A DNA stretch of 64,000 nucleotides from Enterobacteria phage RB18, in the sequence record NC_054906.1; one strand, written 5' to 3'. The number at the start of each line of letters is the position of its first letter. Within the stretch, counting starts at the first letter, position 1. The position numbers and the translations under genes were made by a program. The notes under the pieces were generated by a model. The model ran no database searches. It saw nothing but the letters and a program-made list of their open reading frames with translations, and was not told the origin of the DNA. Positions 8,509-21,082 of the stretch are shown here, in pieces.

Positions 8509-8783
8509 TAAACTTTCCTCGCTAAATCGCGAATTTGACCTACAGTATAATCTTGAATATAAACTTTATTAATAGGCTCATCCATAAATTTTGCCATAGA
8601 TTCAATATCTTTTTGCATCTCTTCAAGACTGTATACTATCTTTAAAGCTTTTTCGCGAATAGTAATATTTTCAGGACTAGAATTTTCCTCAATGACAGCT
8701 TTAACATTTGTCATAAGAGATTTAAACTGATGCAAACTTAATTCAATCATTAATAACCGCCTTATAAAGATGGCTAATTTCAC
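8508..8783 (-). CDS. hypothetical small protein
   Basis: 91-aa ORF. Confidence 0.45.
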   Translation of the reverse strand: MKLAIFIRRLLMIELSLHQFKSLMTNVKAVIEENSSPENITIREKALKIVYSLEEMQKDIESMAKFMDEPINKVYIQDYTVGQIRDLARKV

Positions 8784-9003
8784 CTAAAACATAATCACTG
8801 ATTGTGACAGTTTTCACTTCACCACAAAAGAATTCTAACGCAATCAAATCTCGTTCAATTTCTTCTAATTGAAGCATTAACTTGCCAGATTCAATTTTTA
8901 CATTTCTACGATTTTTACTATAAGCTATTTCATAAATTTCGCTCACTTTATCTTGAAGCAGATAAAACTGGTCTTTAGTTATTTCCACGAATAGCTTCCT
9001 CAA
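8743..9003 (-). CDS. hypothetical small protein
   Basis: 86-aa ORF; overlaps neighbour, real start may be internal. Confidence 0.4.
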   Translation of the reverse strand: MRKLFVEITKDQFYLLQDKVSEIYEIAYSKNRRNVKIESGKLMLQLEEIERDLIALEFFCGEVKTVTISDYVLGEISHLYKAVIND

Positions 9004-15161: not shown

Positions 15162-15407
15162 TTATTCACCAGTTACTTTCCACAAATCTTCATTTGCAGC
15201 AATCCATTCAGTACGTTGATTTTCTTCATATACTGTAGAATATGCTGCTTTTTCTGAAGGGAATGTCTGATAATGAGCACCAGAAATTTTGTGAACGTCA
15301 GAATAAAGAGGGAAAGCTACAGAAATTTCCTTTCCTTCAATTTTCTTATTTCCATCTAATTTCTGCTCAAATGTTTTGATATTAACATAACCGCGAGTAC
15401 TAGCCAT
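15162..15407 (-). CDS. soc: small outer capsid protein Soc
   Basis: 81 aa; MASTRGYVNIKTFEQKLDGNKKIEGKEISVAFPLYSDVHKISGAHYQTFPSEK matches recalled T4 Soc. Confidence 0.9.
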   Translation of the reverse strand: MASTRGYVNIKTFEQKLDGNKKIEGKEISVAFPLYSDVHKISGAHYQTFPSEKAAYSTVYEENQRTEWIAANEDLWKVTGE

Positions 15408-15423: not shown

Positions 15424-15633
15424 TTAAATTACATGATTATTTATAATAAATTCTCGCGGAACGTTAAAATACCCAATTTTAGTTAATATAACAATATCGC
15501 CGTTAATAATTACCGGAGAATAATCGGCTGGAGCATTAAATTTCCAATGGGCTCTAATATTATATCCATCAGAACCAAATGCTCGAATAGCCGGTCTCCC
15601 GGCTTTTTGCCATGCATAAAAATCAAATTTCAT
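15424..15633 (-). CDS. hypothetical small protein
   Basis: 69-aa ORF. Confidence 0.45.
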   Translation of the reverse strand: MKFDFYAWQKAGRPAIRAFGSDGYNIRAHWKFNAPADYSPVIINGDIVILTKIGYFNVPREFIINNHVI

Positions 15634-15833
15634 TTTGAATGCTCTATAATTAATTTTAAGGCTTCTTCACACACCAACTTGTCTAATGGTATATGCCCAG
15701 TTTTAATTGTGTAAGCTTTGTGGAGCTGATTAGATAAGAGCTCGTATGTGAGCTCTTTGTCATAATCTTTAAATAGCTGGTCAATACGTTTCTTGCGGGC
15801 TTTCTTAAGCTGGCGTTTATTTAAACGAGCCAT
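15630..15833 (-). CDS. hypothetical small basic protein
   Basis: 67-aa ORF. Confidence 0.45.
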   Translation of the reverse strand: MARLNKRQLKKARKKRIDQLFKDYDKELTYELLSNQLHKAYTIKTGHIPLDKLVCEEALKLIIEHSK

Positions 15834-16351
15834 TAATAGCCTCTGTCTTGACGAGCGAAGTTTTCAGCATTTTTCAGATAATAAAGTTTAAATATTTCTT
15901 CAGCTGACATTCCAAGAGCAATGAATTTATTCATGAAAAAGTGAAATTGATCAATCAGTTCAAATTTAATTTCAAGTTGATCTTCAGGAGATAAATCTTG
16001 AATTTTCTTGGATTGCATTTCAGAATAACGTTTCTTCCAAGGTTTCCATACAGCAGAAGCTTCTTTTTCACCATTACTCATACCACCAAGAGAAGTATAT
16101 AGCTCGCGAGTTTCGTCTGCGATATAATCGTCTTGGTTTCGCAGCCAAGCAAGAACTTCTCCTGCAGTTTCAAGTGAATCAGGATGACGATTTGTTTCTG
16201 GTTTATCATTAGCCAAACGAATCTGTAAATGCCGCTGCATATCAAGCATAACCTGCAGTGGGTCAATATTGTGCATAATATTCTCAGCATATGCACGATT
16301 TGCTTTATCAACACCTTCGATCAAATGAGCACATTCATTAAAGTAAGCCAT
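15833..16351 (-). CDS. 56: dCTP/dUTP pyrophosphatase gp56 (MazG-like)
   Basis: 172 aa from the internal ATG at 16351 (AGGAAA RBS), beginning MAYFNECAHLIEGVDKA like T4 gp56; the track N-terminal extension is rejected. Confidence 0.8.
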   Translation of the reverse strand: MAYFNECAHLIEGVDKANRAYAENIMHNIDPLQVMLDMQRHLQIRLANDKPETNRHPDSLETAGEVLAWLRNQDDYIADETRELYTSLGGMSNGEKEASAVWKPWKKRYSEMQSKKIQDLSPEDQLEIKFELIDQFHFFMNKFIALGMSAEEIFKLYYLKNAENFARQDRGY

Positions 16352-16385
16352 TATTTTTCCTTTCAATTCATGGGTTAGTAGATTA

Positions 16386-16410
16386 ATTATACAATAAATA
16401 TATAAAGCAA
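16386..16410 (-). promoter_or_regulatory. MotA-dependent middle promoter for gene 56
   Basis: minus strand reads TTGCTTTA, 11 nt, TATAAT. Confidence 0.45.
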
Positions 16411-16422
16411 TAAGGAGGACAT

Positions 16423-16623
16423 ATGATACAAAAATTAATGGCACTTGTTAATGCCATAAAAGGTAATAAGAAACGTATAGCTTTTACTATTTCTGCTATG
16501 GTAGGAATTTTACTCTGGAACTTTATTTTATCACCTGTTGCAATTGCACATGGTATTAATATTCCAGTAGTTACTCTTGATACATTCGTAGATTTAGCAT
16601 TTGCTTTAGTTGGGTTAATTTAA
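16423..16623 (+). CDS. candidate plus-strand small hydrophobic membrane protein
   Basis: 66-aa ORF in the 268-bp gap between 61 and 56; AAGGAGG SD 3-4 nt before the ATG; two predicted hydrophobic segments. Confidence 0.3.
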   Translation: MIQKLMALVNAIKGNKKRIAFTISAMVGILLWNFILSPVAIAHGINIPVVTLDTFVDLAFALVGLI

Positions 16624-17648
16624 ATCTTAGCATATTTAGATAACCGCATTTTAGCCATCAACCCCTGGGCAATATTATTTTTCATATATTCCATAATTTG
16701 TTCAGGGGTTGCACCTTCCTTTCTAATCATATCATTAACATCTTTTGATTTCCAGGGAGATTTATCCCAAAACATAACCCTTTCTCCTGCATCAACTAAT
16801 TTAGTCATTCGCTTAATAGTGTCAGGATGACGAGGTTCATTATCTAAAACCCACACACGTCTATCTTTAAATGGAACAACTTCTAGGTCTAATTGACCAC
16901 CCGTAATAGCTATACCATTTTCAATAAAAAGTGAATCTATAGGTCCTTCTAGAACATATACATCACCATCTTTAACTCGTTCGACTCCATAGATTTTTGT
17001 TGCTTCAGGATAAGCTTTGATGGTGATATATTTTTGGGGAGCATCTTTCTTTAATGCACGTCCTTGAAAAGACTCAGCTTTTCCATTAGCATTATAAATT
17101 GGAATAACAAGACGAGGCTCAGGTATTTCCTTTTTATATGTTCCCGGTGCTATGCTATTAACTAATTTAGGCCATTCAGTTGTAAACCAAAGATATTTCC
17201 ATTTATCCTTTGGAATACAACGAGCTTTTACATATTTTATAATTGCATGGTCTTCCGCCAGTTTATCTAATCGAACACATGACGGAAGAGATTTAATTAT
17301 TTTCTTCTCAGGTTGTTTAGGAAGTTCTTTAGGTTTTTCTACTGGACGACTTTTACCTTTTTCTTTTCTTATTTCAAAGATATACTCACGATATAAATCA
17401 GGTTCAAACTCCTTTAAATATATTCCGATTGGTGCATGATAGTTACAGTTATAACAATGAATATTTCCTTCATTATTATCACCATAATACCATCCACGAG
17501 CTTTATTCTGGTCGGTTTTTGAATCTCCACAAACAGGACATCTAAACCGTAATTTAAAAGTTGAACTATTATTTACTTGTGTGAATTTAGGTAAATGAGC
17601 TAATGCACGGTATGCAAACTCATTATCAATCCAAGGTATTGATGACAT
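16620..17648 (-). CDS. 61: DNA primase gp61 (zinc ribbon + TOPRIM)
   Basis: 342 aa as in T4; CPVCGDS...CYNC zinc ribbon. Confidence 0.9.
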   Translation of the reverse strand: MSSIPWIDNEFAYRALAHLPKFTQVNNSSTFKLRFRCPVCGDSKTDQNKARGWYYGDNNEGNIHCYNCNYHAPIGIYLKEFEPDLYREYIFEIRKEKGKSRPVEKPKELPKQPEKKIIKSLPSCVRLDKLAEDHAIIKYVKARCIPKDKWKYLWFTTEWPKLVNSIAPGTYKKEIPEPRLVIPIYNANGKAESFQGRALKKDAPQKYITIKAYPEATKIYGVERVKDGDVYVLEGPIDSLFIENGIAITGGQLDLEVVPFKDRRVWVLDNEPRHPDTIKRMTKLVDAGERVMFWDKSPWKSKDVNDMIRKEGATPEQIMEYMKNNIAQGLMAKMRLSKYAKI

Positions 17649-17650
17649 TT

Positions 17651-17815
17651 TTACTCTTCTTTTTCTTTAGATTCCTCTTTTTTCTTTTTAGGAATCTGTT
17701 CAGGGCCTTTATTTACTACAGCGCCTGACGTTGTTCCAGTAGAGATATTTTCAGGATTACCACCTGAATCTCCAGCGACCATATCTTCTTTGATAAATTC
17801 TTTATATGTTTTCAT
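17651..17815 (-). CDS. small protein with capsid-targeting-sequence-like N-terminus (54 aa), absent from the ORF track
   Basis: MKTYKEFIKEDMVAGDSGG... resembles the T4 internal-protein CTS MKTYQEFIAE; fills the gap between flanking genes exactly. Confidence 0.4.
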   Translation of the reverse strand: MKTYKEFIKEDMVAGDSGGNPENISTGTTSGAVVNKGPEQIPKKKKEESKEKEE

Positions 17816-17816
17816 A

Positions 17817-18173
17817 TTAACCTCTATTCATAAAAGCATTAAAAATTTGGTCATCAATAGATGGAATAGCAACCTTTTCGGCATCATTTAGCAAATCATT
17901 AATTTCATCAGATAGCATAACACATGTGCCTTTATTTCCTGTAATTGTTACTGCGCAATTACGAACGTTTTCTTTATCAAATTTTAGGTTAATATTTTCG
18001 TAGTGAAAATCCTTTAATGCCGAATATATCTTTAAAATGAAATTGTCTTTTACTACAATAAACCCAACTTCACTATTAAAACGTGGTTCATGGAAACTGT
18101 AATAAACCTTTTCATCTATGAAATCGTATGAAATTTTTTCCATTTTTAAATATGAAAATTCAGAACTATACAT
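17817..18173 (-). CDS. hypothetical protein sharing a C-terminal tail with the next gene
   Basis: 118 aa ending SIDDQIFNAFMNRG; 3' end lies inside a 45-nt direct repeat. Confidence 0.5.
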   Translation of the reverse strand: MYSSEFSYLKMEKISYDFIDEKVYYSFHEPRFNSEVGFIVVKDNFILKIYSALKDFHYENINLKFDKENVRNCAVTITGNKGTCVMLSDEINDLLNDAEKVAIPSIDDQIFNAFMNRG

Positions 18174-18174
18174 A

Positions 18175-18801
18175 TTAATCTCTATTCATAAAAGCATTAA
18201 AAATTTGGTCATCAATAGAAACATTTACTTTAGACTGTTTTTCAGATGGCAATTCATATCCACATATTACAATTTTATGATCAATATCAAAATACACAGA
18301 AGCAATATGATTAATGATATTTTCAGTGAAGTCTAAATCGACATCAATATCTTTTTGACCACAGCCCAAAGGATAAATAATGCGAGTAATTCGATTATCT
18401 TTAACAAATATTCCACCGACATACTCTGTACTGCGTTTAAAGTCTACACGCCGACGAAATGAAAAATATTCAGGCTCTTTATGAGCTCGGCTCATAGGAC
18501 ACAACGAATAACTAGAATAAGAGATGTCAAATCCTACGCCTTCGATATGAGCCAAAGTGTCATGATTAAACCAATTATAATCGTACGCCAAATCCATTAG
18601 ATTATAATATGTAAAAGGCACCGGATTAACATCATTAGTCACAAGCATGTAATTAGCAACTGCTATAATTTCATTGTTTTTAACGAATACAAACCGTGAT
18701 TGATGCGAATGACCTGGACCCGCGTTTTCACGATTAATGATATAACACTGGGCACCTTTATATTTGTATGTATCTTTGCACTTGTGCATTTGATAGAGCA
18801 T
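18175..18801 (-). CDS. hypothetical protein
   Basis: 208 aa ending SIDDQIFNAFMNRD; 3' end lies inside the same 45-nt direct repeat. Confidence 0.5.
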   Translation of the reverse strand: MLYQMHKCKDTYKYKGAQCYIINRENAGPGHSHQSRFVFVKNNEIIAVANYMLVTNDVNPVPFTYYNLMDLAYDYNWFNHDTLAHIEGVGFDISYSSYSLCPMSRAHKEPEYFSFRRRVDFKRSTEYVGGIFVKDNRITRIIYPLGCGQKDIDVDLDFTENIINHIASVYFDIDHKIVICGYELPSEKQSKVNVSIDDQIFNAFMNRD

Positions 18802-19094
18802 TATTCACCTACCACTTCAGCGATGATATTTTTGTTATTAAAGTTTTTATCGCAATACAGAACATAATTATACTGCATTACACCACCAGACTTAAGTTGT
18901 TTTTGCACTTCAGCTTTCATTTCAGGACGATCACGCTCAACGATATTCATAATATCCGCTTCAATTTGAGTTTCAACTTCAGTCTGATCCGCAGTCATAG
19001 ACCATTCGCACAAATCTTTATCATAACCTGCCATAGCAGGCTGAGCAGCGCAAGAAGCTAAAGCAAAAATTGTAGCAAAGATAAATTTTTTCAT
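18801..19094 (-). CDS. predicted lipoprotein
   Basis: 97 aa; signal peptide with lipobox LASC. Confidence 0.55.
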   Translation of the reverse strand: MKKFIFATIFALASCAAQPAMAGYDKDLCEWSMTADQTEVETQIEADIMNIVERDRPEMKAEVQKQLKSGGVMQYNYVLYCDKNFNNKNIIAEVVGE

Positions 19095-19154: not shown

Positions 19155-19454
19155 TTATTTTAAAATTTCTGCGTAATCACATGTTACAAACTGTTTCTCT
19201 AGCTTGACGATTTTACGAAAGTATCTTTTGCATTGGCGAATCTGCCTCTTCGTAGGGCGAACAGCAAACTTAATAAATTCCACTCGACCAAATGGAGGAC
19301 TTTCTTCTGCTGGAATATCTAACACCAATTCCCACGTATCTGCAATAAGTGCTTTGAATTGCGTATTTTTCCTGACGTTATACGGAGTAGGTTTAAATAA
19401 AACAATATGCATATTATCCTCGGCAATCCACTTCACATACTTTCTTGTCATCAA
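19155..19454 (-). CDS. hypothetical protein
   Basis: 99-aa ORF. Confidence 0.5.
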   Translation of the reverse strand: MMTRKYVKWIAEDNMHIVLFKPTPYNVRKNTQFKALIADTWELVLDIPAEESPPFGRVEFIKFAVRPTKRQIRQCKRYFRKIVKLEKQFVTCDYAEILK

Positions 19455-19596
19455 TGAAAGCTTTAACTAATGCTTTATTAACTTCAGCATATTGAGTAGT
19501 AGCCCATTGAACGTCATCTTTCATCATTGTGATTTCTTTAGTAAACATACTTTCGTTCTTAAACCACCCCATAAAAACTACTTTTACCAATTCCAT
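19414..19596 (-). CDS. hypothetical small protein
   Basis: 60-aa ORF overlapping its neighbour. Confidence 0.35.
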   Translation of the reverse strand: MELVKVVFMGWFKNESMFTKEITMMKDDVQWATTQYAEVNKALVKAFIDDKKVCEVDCRG

Positions 19597-19625: not shown

Positions 19626-19655
19626 ACTATACCATAGTCTTGTCAGCTTGTAAAC
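19626..19655 (-). promoter_or_regulatory. early promoter (GTTTAC-18-TATAGT)
   Basis: minus-strand consensus at the 3' end of gene 41; -10 lies inside the inverted repeat caagacta...tagtcttg. Confidence 0.5.
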
Positions 19656-21082
19656 TAAAATTTTAATTCATTTGCCAAAGCATCTAACTGAGCTCGAGTG
19701 GATTCATTTCTTTGATAGCGATTCTGCTCAGCTTGTATCTGTTGTGAACCTGCTACCTCACTCACTTCAGTTGGAGTAGAATCTTGTTCAATTTCTACCC
19801 ATTTCTGATTTCCTTTTTGAACACCCATCAAAAACTTATTCCATTTGTTCTTATCGCCATATCGTGATTTGATTTGCTTAATGAGTTGTTGTTCAGCAGC
19901 TGCTAGCTCCTCGGTTTCAATGACCGCAAGCATAAAATCGGCTGTTGCTGGAAGACCGGCAGATTCTGCAATATCGCTCATGTTAACATCAGAAGAATCC
20001 CAAGCTTGTTTACCAACCTGTGCTGCAGTCCAAAGAACAGTTTCGGTTTCAACAGCAAGAGCACGCAATTCCTCTGCAATAGCTTTAACAGTTGTGTAAC
20101 TATTTTCTGAATAAACTCTGATGCGACAAGATTTACAAATACCCAGATAGTCGACAATAATGATTGTTGGAACAAAATTCTTCTTGAGCTTCAATTCGTT
20201 TAAAAGTGATCGAAATGTATTAGCATCTGCTCCACCAGTAGGATACTGTTTAACGATTAAACGACCGAGAGTAGATTTCTCACGCCATTTTTCCATTTTT
20301 CCTTTATACTCAGCGTAAGAAATATGCCCATCATCAATGTCATCAAGAGAAACATCAAGCATATTAGCATCAATACGTTTAGCACAGACTTCTTCTGCCA
20401 TTTCCATGGAAATGTAAAGAACATTATGTCCGAGCTGTAAATAATCTGCTGCCAATGAACACAGACCTAATGACTTACCAACGTTAACGCCAGCCATTAA
20501 AACGTTCAGCGTTCCAGTTTCAGCTCCGCCTTTCGTAATTTTGTTTAGAATTCTGAGTTTAAATGGAACCTTACGAGCTTTATTCATATAAGATAGCCAA
20601 CGTGCTTCATAGTCATCCATCCAATCATGACCAACGTAACTATCAAATGAAATTGATAATGCTTGGCGCATGATGTCAGGAATAGCACCAACATCCGGCA
20701 TTTTCTTATTTCGTTTTTCCGGAGGAAGCTCAGCATTAGTTTGAATTTCAATTATTTTAGACGTAGCATTAAACATCGCCCTTTGCTGAACATATTTTTC
20801 TGTTTCTTTTACTAACCAGCTGTGGTCTTCCGGAGAATCGGCTAGTTTTGAAATAAGTGTTTTTACACCAGAATATTCTGTTTCAGTAAATGAACTATTT
20901 TCTAATGCAACATTTAACGCATTGATAGATGGAACGCTATGATACTCATTAACATGGGATTTAATTAATTTGAATGTATTTTTAGCTGGACCACTTTCAA
21001 AATATTCTGAATCCATATATGGCCAAACTTTTGAAAAATAAGCTTGATCAAATATGAGATGAGAAAGAATAATTTCTACCAC
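19655..21082 (-). CDS. 41: replicative DNA helicase gp41 (DnaB-like)
   Basis: 475 aa as in T4; RecA-fold ATPase; position. Confidence 0.9.
   Translation of the reverse strand: MVEIILSHLIFDQAYFSKVWPYMDSEYFESGPAKNTFKLIKSHVNEYHSVPSINALNVALENSSFTETEYSGVKTLISKLADSPEDHSWLVKETEKYVQQRAMFNATSKIIEIQTNAELPPEKRNKKMPDVGAIPDIMRQALSISFDSYVGHDWMDDYEARWLSYMNKARKVPFKLRILNKITKGGAETGTLNVLMAGVNVGKSLGLCSLAADYLQLGHNVLYISMEMAEEVCAKRIDANMLDVSLDDIDDGHISYAEYKGKMEKWREKSTLGRLIVKQYPTGGADANTFRSLLNELKLKKNFVPTIIIVDYLGICKSCRIRVYSENSYTTVKAIAEELRALAVETETVLWTAAQVGKQAWDSSDVNMSDIAESAGLPATADFMLAVIETEELAAAEQQLIKQIKSRYGDKNKWNKFLMGVQKGNQKWVEIEQDSTPTEVSEVAGSQQIQAEQNRYQRNESTRAQLDALANELKF

Follow-up and report, generated by a model that had tools for sequence, protein, structure and literature searches.

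A conserved small gene encoding a predicted inner-membrane protein at the gene 56/61 junction of a dam-less Tequatrovirus

At the junction between genes 56 and 61, the DNA analyzed here (a stretch of 64,000 nucleotides, referred to throughout as the window) carries on its plus strand a 66-codon open reading frame (ORF; 16423..16623) that comparative sequence data show to be a bona fide gene, under purifying selection and syntenic across the Tevenvirinae. The source of the window is a Tequatrovirus with the common dam-less form of the 56/61 junction, and the locus as a whole is probably best explained as such a junction holding a divergent control region and a late-type gene for a conserved predicted membrane protein. 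The family is already known: hundreds of genomes list it as a hypothetical protein, among them that of phage Aplg8, whose protein is 100% identical to the one encoded here, and nothing distinguishes the window copy from the rest of this family, PHROG 2024.

The case for a gene comes from its homologs. Frame +1 is open in all 24 distinct homologs compared (29-43% G+C), with no stop codon in any of them; over the same set, four of the other frames hold 95-182 stops in total and antisense frame -2 holds 18. In close relatives the latter frame is almost free of stops, but it is interrupted in the more distant sequences from phage Q7622 and the metagenomic contigs L023 and L029. For pairs with measurable dS, a mixture of within-genus and between-genus comparisons, Nei-Gojobori dN/dS ranges from 0.16 to 0.34. 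Between the most distant genera the synonymous sites are saturated (pS ~0.75), and the ORF is still open there. Variable sites are distributed 44/20/58 over the three codon positions, as fits a plus-strand gene, while an antisense gene would read 58/20/44. Moreover, in an alignment of 16 sequences spanning 31-95% identity to the window protein we found 11 invariant residues, among them G14, W32-N33-F34, P38, G44, P48, A61, and G64-L65, and hmmscan matched residues 3-66 of the 66 to PHROG 2024 with E=2.2e-31. The ORF is preceded by the Shine-Dalgarno (SD) sequence AAGGAGG (16412..16418, plus strand), 4 nt 5′ of the ATG, and a strong SD is conserved across loci. The sequence-only reading of this DNA had singled out this ORF with its AAGGAGG as the only convincing plus-strand coding candidate in the window, and rightly so: it is the sole ATG ORF of at least 60 aa there with a well-placed strong SD.

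That reading had also advised a search of relatives for the 66-aa peptide. Using tblastn, we found a homolog in 695 phage records, 194 of them with less than 60% identity, and among the matches listed it adjoins the primase gene. The loci that we compared were Mosigvirus-type (F2, PhAPEC2), from Gaprivervirus (TH57, TH15, TH41) and Kanagawavirus (Q7622), and from IMG/VR contigs. We confirmed that the homolog lies between 56 and 61 on the plus strand in T4, T2, RB14, F2, PhAPEC2, TH57, TH15, TH41, Q7622, and the metagenomic T4-like contigs L023, L028, and L029. In T4-like genomes the position of the family is conserved: plus strand, between 56 (or dam) and 61, and convergent with 61. Distinct homologs come from at least four named Tevenvirinae genera and from further enterobacterial T4-like phages; tblastn with two relatives as queries extends the family to T4-like phages of Klebsiella, Salmonella, Citrobacter, Raoultella, and Enterobacter, at least 174 further Klebsiella, Salmonella, and Citrobacter records carrying the homolog. 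A profile search of 1.84 billion representative proteins returned only 15 relatives, 50-70 aa long and all matching PHROG 2024, to which the distant members of the family match at 1e-9 to 1e-24. With P0086 and P0088 as queries, tblastn against cultured phages gave no match, and neither did a contig scan with P0086.

T4 itself carries the ORF between dam and gene 61 (T4 17738..17938; 8739..8939 in our extracted locus L002), with three amino-acid differences. It is unannotated in the reference record NC_000866 and in the 1984 record X01416, while a Pharokka-annotated T4 record lists it as a PHROG 2024 hypothetical protein and the RB14 annotation as RB32ORF030w, "similar to RB69ORF029w". RB69ORF029w, RB32ORF030w, PHROG 2024, and VOG1982 all denote the family of the window protein, with the same strand and the same position convergent with 61. 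No function is assigned to the PHROG 2024 family in any record or paper that we searched, and our literature search found no RNA-seq, ribosome profiling, or proteomics covering the small ORF and nothing on RB69ORF029w, RB32ORF030w, 61.-1, or dam.1.

The DNA between gene 56 and the small ORF is dense with control signals on both strands. In middle promoters that depend on MotA, a box of consensus (a/t)(a/t)TGCTT(t/c)A is centered near -30 and is followed after 11-13 bp by a sigma-70 -10 element. On the minus strand of the window, the MotA box ATTGCTTTA (16411..16403) is followed after an 11-nt spacer by the -10 element TATAAT (16391..16386) and then by the ribosome-binding site of gene 56. Judged by sequence, gene 56 has here a textbook middle promoter of the MotA-box type, the one that the sequence-only reading had predicted. 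X01416 annotates its positional homolog in T4, P(M)16.53, together with a mot-box; that promoter serves gene 56 (formerly gene 69) at oriA. Box and TATAAT lie at the same position upstream of 56, and the -10 elements of the two promoters are homologous. Of the loci examined, the dam-less Tequatrovirus ones keep the MotA box, as do most of those from Gaprivervirus and of F2 type. The promoter would fire leftward into gene 56 in a MotA-dependent manner and by homology with T4 would also produce the oriA primer transcript; the T4 record places oriA just inside the start of gene 56. The difference from T4 lies in what stands next to it: there, dam parts P(M)16.53 from the small gene, whereas in the window the promoters of the two genes appear interleaved within ~26 bp.

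The second of these promoters is a candidate late promoter on the plus strand. T4 early and middle transcripts have a single polarity and late transcripts either polarity, and of 50 listed T4 late promoters 32 are perfect and nine have A at -13 (PMC2988020, Geiduschek and Kassavetis). The octamer AATAAATA (16393..16400, plus strand) is such an A(-13) variant of TATAAATA, and the locus shows what T4 late promoters have, a TATAAATA-type octamer at about -13 to -6, a -35 element being unneeded. An octamer of the form NATAAATA lies 23-41 nt 5′ of the ATG in all of the T4-like loci examined (25/25). The window has it as AATAAATA, T4 and T2 as GATAAATA, Gaprivervirus and several metagenomic lineages as CATAAATA, and Q7622 as TATAAATA; Q7622 is the only lineage with the perfect sequence, the others deviating at the first base. 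The sequence around it is rearranged and unalignable between lineages, and its position relative to the MotA box shifts. It is missing in the three non-T4-like relatives (3/3), and the curated record of phage fPS-65 predicts no late promoter at this position. In the window, ATAAATA is four-fold depleted, with 10 occurrences on both strands against 41.5 +/- 6.3 expected from shuffles, and of the five sites on the minus strand one belongs to the known late promoter of soc. Eight further sites (plus strand 14141, 18373, 60956, and 63515; minus strand 43162, 56456, 63106, and 63119) may, judging from the motif, mark additional late or antisense transcription units.

Because the early and middle genes are on the other strand, the small ORF could be served by no T4 type of promoter but a late one. 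From this we infer that the small gene is transcribed late, from a start placed at about 16406, the +1 position lying six nt past the octamer. The octamer falls within the spacer of the middle promoter on the minus strand, both within ~26 bp (16386..16411), and the plus-strand SD starts directly past the MotA box. The 71 bp that separate gene 56 from the small ORF would then work as a compact divergent control region, in which the gp55-type late promoter AATAAATA would fire rightward, on the strand opposite to the middle promoter. The late transcript would have a leader of ~17 nt containing the AAGGAGG, would encode the 66-aa protein, and would then run antisense into the 3′ end of gene 61, because no plus-strand terminator is predicted. 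Its closest parallel is T4 soc, likewise a short late-type unit (late octamer, short leader with SD, small ORF) set amid early genes. In the window, soc (15162..15407, minus strand) has its promoter TATAAATA at 15445..15438, 38 nt 5′ of its ATG, a geometry resembling that of the small-gene promoter. The two differ in that soc is a minus-strand gene for a soluble protein that decorates the capsid, while the small gene lies on the plus strand behind an A(-13) variant and encodes a predicted membrane protein.

Hydropathy gives that protein one strong transmembrane segment, residues 18-45, and AlphaFold, run with the 16-sequence alignment, predicts helices at residues 2-12, 16-42, and 52-63 with a mean pLDDT of 79.8. 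A basic cluster, KGNKKR (K13-R18), stands N-terminal to the segment, and no basic residue follows R18; acidic residues are conserved in the C-terminal helix, which is charged in distant members, and the window protein ends in DLAFALVGLI. The predicted product is a single-pass inner-membrane protein with an invariant WNF...P...G core, membrane insertion being deduced from these features. On the model, its N-terminus most likely lies inside and its C-terminus outside, with an interfacial C-terminal helix, because the basic K13-R18 cluster precedes the segment and the C-terminal helix is acidic. The chain would thus begin with a short amphipathic helix and the KGNKKR cluster, which would stay cytoplasmic, cross the membrane as one long helix containing the invariant W32-N33-F34...P38, turn in a G44...P48 loop, and end in a short acidic amphipathic helix, most likely on the periplasmic face. 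Searches of Pfam, NCBIfam, and PDB sequences, and Foldseek against the PDB and BFVD, gave no informative match; the BFVD matches were members of the family only, one of them auto-named "Holin".

What such a protein might do can be proposed only tentatively. A possible role, and to us a somewhat doubtful one, is a late action at the inner membrane, where its Asn/Pro helix would bind a second membrane protein, probably in lysis timing or envelope control rather than as a self-sufficient holin. The fuller version of this proposal, to be taken at best as equally tentative, is that of a T-even gene left unannotated, whose strongly translated, late inner-membrane product might use the WNF...P motif to bind holin T, RI, an i-spanin, or a host complex, and in this way tune lysis timing, lysis inhibition, or envelope integrity, as part of a module common to some siphophage lysis or tail-end regions. 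The neighborhoods that suggest it are those of three non-T4-like uncultured contigs, in which the homolog belongs to a late operon of siphophage type, after the gene for the central tail fibre J. Near the homolog are proteins of 81-94 aa (L026 2777..3022, L030 4260..4544, and L031 4263..4547) that combine an N-terminal transmembrane segment with a long coiled coil and give sub-threshold matches to DUF2730, BhlA holin, and DUF7365; a lysozyme gene is found within 2 kb of the homolog in L026 only. By gene content, the siphophage-type cluster may be a conserved module. Homologous pairs of proteins of 179-196 aa and 105-106 aa co-occur in L026 and L030, and homing-endonuclease genes (Endonuclease_7, GIY-YIG) interrupt the cluster. 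These neighborhood hints, together with the failure to detect the fD1 homolog among virion proteins (see below), lean weakly toward a late membrane or lysis-related accessory role and against a role in the virion. In T4-like phages the small gene lies away from e, t, rI, and the spanin genes, and the functional guess rests on the three uncultured contigs and the sub-threshold Pfam matches. Besides, t, e, rI, rIII, and the spanins already explain the lysis genetics of T4.

Two database records label homologs "holin" or "putative holin", apparently from hydrophobicity alone. There is a likeness to holins and antiholins (lambda S, phage 21 S68, T4 T and RI), in that the small gene product is predicted to be small and membrane-embedded and is probably late, and in that the siphophage-type relatives adjoin BhlA/DUF2730-like proteins and, once, a lysozyme gene. 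By prediction it also has the one or more transmembrane domains expected of a holin (hydropathy 18-45; AlphaFold helix 16-42). The hydrophilic, highly charged C-terminal tail is missing, the neighbors in T4-like phages are 56, dam, and 61 rather than an endolysin gene or lysis cassette, and the holin families of Pfam and NCBIfam gave no match, the best being GTA_holin_3TM with E=0.081 in two of 16 members. The lack of a charged tail, of an adjacent endolysin gene in T4-like phages, and of any family match leaves membership among the holins unsupported. Moreover, T4 t mutants do not lyse, and the small protein therefore cannot be a sufficient holin.

A less likely but still credible alternative is that the protein is a superinfection-exclusion or injection-blocking factor of the inner membrane, like T4 Imm or HK97 gp15. 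These proteins are of similar size and membrane location, and the non-T4-like relatives, at the ends of tail clusters by the J gene or at a prophage border, occupy moron-like positions that are frequent sites of exclusion genes; in T4-like phages the small gene is within 2.5 kb of sp. Exclusion genes are nevertheless normally expressed early, as from the early promoter of an Imm-type gene, whereas the only promoter seen upstream of the small gene on the plus strand is of late type, and in T4 this strand is read only by the late RNA polymerase (PMC2988020). The predicted protein probably has one membrane span and not two. No sequence or fold similarity to known exclusion proteins was detected: Pfam, NCBIfam, and the sequences of solved structures gave no match to Imm or other exclusion proteins, and the search of 1.84 billion proteins gave family members only.

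We consider it unlikely that the protein is associated with the virion or with morphogenesis, for example as a membrane peptide ejected with the DNA or as an assembly anchor. The late-type promoter would suit such a role, as would the place of the non-T4-like relatives within tail clusters, adjoining a match to PHROG 1924, "minor tail protein". Against it, the homolog in phage fD1, g032, is absent among the particle proteins found by virion LC-MS/MS, in which many non-structural proteins were detected (PMC8309999 supplement), a weak argument given about one usable tryptic peptide, and no structural similarity was found.

About as improbable is the idea that the late RNA itself is the main product, shutting off primase mRNA by antisense, with the ORF secondary. 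The layout invites it. The small gene and gene 61 (DNA primase; 16620..17648, minus strand) are convergent and their stop codons overlap by 4 nt, TTAA (16620..16623), no terminator is predicted on the plus strand, and several T4 sites are transcribed on both strands at different times (PMC2988020). But selection acts on the amino-acid sequence, with its invariant motifs, the strong SD is conserved, and homologs occur in phages with no gene 61 downstream. The stop overlap is also common rather than universal, as TH57 has a 108-nt gap between the ORF and 61 and L023 has another gene between them. An antisense role could be an add-on to the protein-coding function; it cannot account for the conservation.

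The 3′ end of gene 61 has a signal of its own within the small gene. On the minus strand, a terminator-like hairpin, ATGGCATT-AACA-AGTGCCAT followed by the T-run TAATTTTTGT (16428..16457; z = -2.25), lies 3′ of gene 61, where it falls within codons 2-12 of the small gene. The record of phage fPS-65 annotates it as a terminator, and, on the strength of its sequence, it probably ends gene 61 transcripts in Tequatrovirus. The same 20 nt (16438..16457) encode residues M6-I12 on the plus strand and form the hairpin on the minus strand, a dual use seen in Tequatrovirus only. The hairpin is specific to this genus and absent in the others, and this ruled it out as a conserved constraint.

It is very improbable that the ORF is no gene at all and that chance, or signals on the minus strand (the gene 61 terminator, the middle promoter, oriA), explain its conservation. 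It is not called in the two T4 records, NC_000866 and X01416, it contains the minus-strand hairpin, and antisense frame -2 is nearly open as well in close relatives; the comparative sequence data, however, already contradict this explanation, as the ORF persists outside Tequatrovirus, where the hairpin is lacking, stays open despite saturated synonymous sites, and has a codon periodicity that matches the plus strand and is inverted on the antisense, stops interrupt the antisense frame in Q7622, L023, and L029, and the PHROG family has members in unrelated phage types.

The genes around the junction, which we named from the ORF listing and by comparison with the annotated RB14 and T4 records, place the window firmly among its relatives. 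About 1.9 kb around the locus are 98-99.3% identical to many Tequatrovirus genomes, the best match being phage Aplg8. From soc to gene 41, all the named genes lie on the minus strand, the small ORF being on the plus strand. Gene 56 (dCTPase/dUTPase; 15833..16351) encodes a protein that begins MAYFNECAHLIEG and is homologous to T4 gp56. Between its start at 16351 and the stop of gene 61 at 16620 there are 268 bp (16352..16619), just the spacing given by the sequence-only reading. Beyond gene 61 come 61.1, a 61.2-like paralog, and 61.2, followed by sp (spackle, 61.3; 18801..19094), 61.4, dmd (61.5; 19414..19596), and gene 41 (19655..21082). Two of these are known by other names in the published source, 61.4 as tifA and 61.2 as adfA. 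The products of 61 through dmd are 97-100% identical to those of T4: gp61 in 338 of 342 residues, spackle in 96 of 97, gp61.4 in 85 of 85, and Dmd in 60 of 60.

Gp56, by contrast, shares only 119 of its 172 residues (69%) with T4 gp56. Since gp61 matches at 338/342, a mosaic boundary falls within the gap, and from these sequences the gap is a mosaic junction with a sharp border between a diverged gp56 and the T4-like side of gp61. This fits the known segF-linked divergence of gene 56, the segF/56 region being T4-specific. ORFs of the soc.1/soc.2 type (15424..15833) are found in the window where T4 carries the homing endonuclease segF. On the other side of the primase gene, 61.2 is present as two tandem minus-strand paralogs, a short one (17817..18173; 118 aa, 113/118 identical to RB32ORF033c of RB14) and a long one of T4 type (18175..18801; 208 aa, 201/208 identical to T4 gp61.2), both ending in ...SIDDQIFNAFMNR(G/D). 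T4 has the long copy only and RB14 the short one only, while the window phage has both, inside the "anti-TA island" made up of dmd, tifA, and adfA. AdfA is an anti-DarT factor (PMC9391042).

The sequence-only reading had named dam, dmd, and sp as occupants of this interval in T4 and had taken dmd, and by implication sp, to be lacking here. Dam does lie between 56 and 61 in T4, as the only annotated gene there, and in T2 it is accompanied by one more ORF; dmd and sp, like tifA and adfA, lie between 61 and 41 in T4 and in the window alike. A deletion that took dam, dmd, and sp from the interval and left no antidote to RnlA/LsoA is next to impossible: it is true that neither the interval nor the rest of the 64-kb window contains dam (tblastn gave insignificant matches only), but dmd, sp, tifA, and adfA are present at their T4 positions, 97-100% identical to T4, and the interval has only ever been occupied by dam, or by dam and one ORF in T2. 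With a dmd gene found 2-3 kb from the gap, which that reading had itself named as what would refute it, the proposed test on hosts carrying RnlA/LsoA has no basis.

The dam-less junction is ordinary for the genus. DNA of T4-type dam occurs in 184 phage records, as against ~500 Tequatrovirus records with the small ORF (≥80% identity), so that by sequence about two thirds of Tequatrovirus records are without T4-type dam, and RB14, sb4, teqskov, IME339, and pSe_SNUABM_01 have exactly the layout of the window. Where dam is present it may have company. T2 has a 181-aa ORF, T2_31, between dam and the small plus-strand gene (locus L017 865..1410, minus strand), ORF g033c of fPS-65 resembles T2_31, and in a related record, phage Shinka, a dam-adjacent ORF is annotated as "putative restriction endonuclease". 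Given these additional ORFs on the dam side, the junction between 56 and the small ORF looks, from gene content, like a hotspot at which a methylase gene inserts, alone or together with a nuclease-like one.

These results remove a false lead, as the phage has both dmd and sp and most of its genus shares its form of the 56/61 junction. The 71-bp region upstream of the small gene would provide an example of middle and late promoters interleaved on opposite strands. More broadly, the reference annotation of T4 is without a conserved gene that is under purifying selection and has late-promoter and strong translation signals in hundreds of relatives, and work built on NC_000866, including proteomics databases, knock-down libraries, and tables stating "homologue in T4: no" (as in the fD1 supplement), would miss it. 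If the proposed role in lysis or at the envelope is true, the small gene would add a new component to one of the best-studied phage systems.
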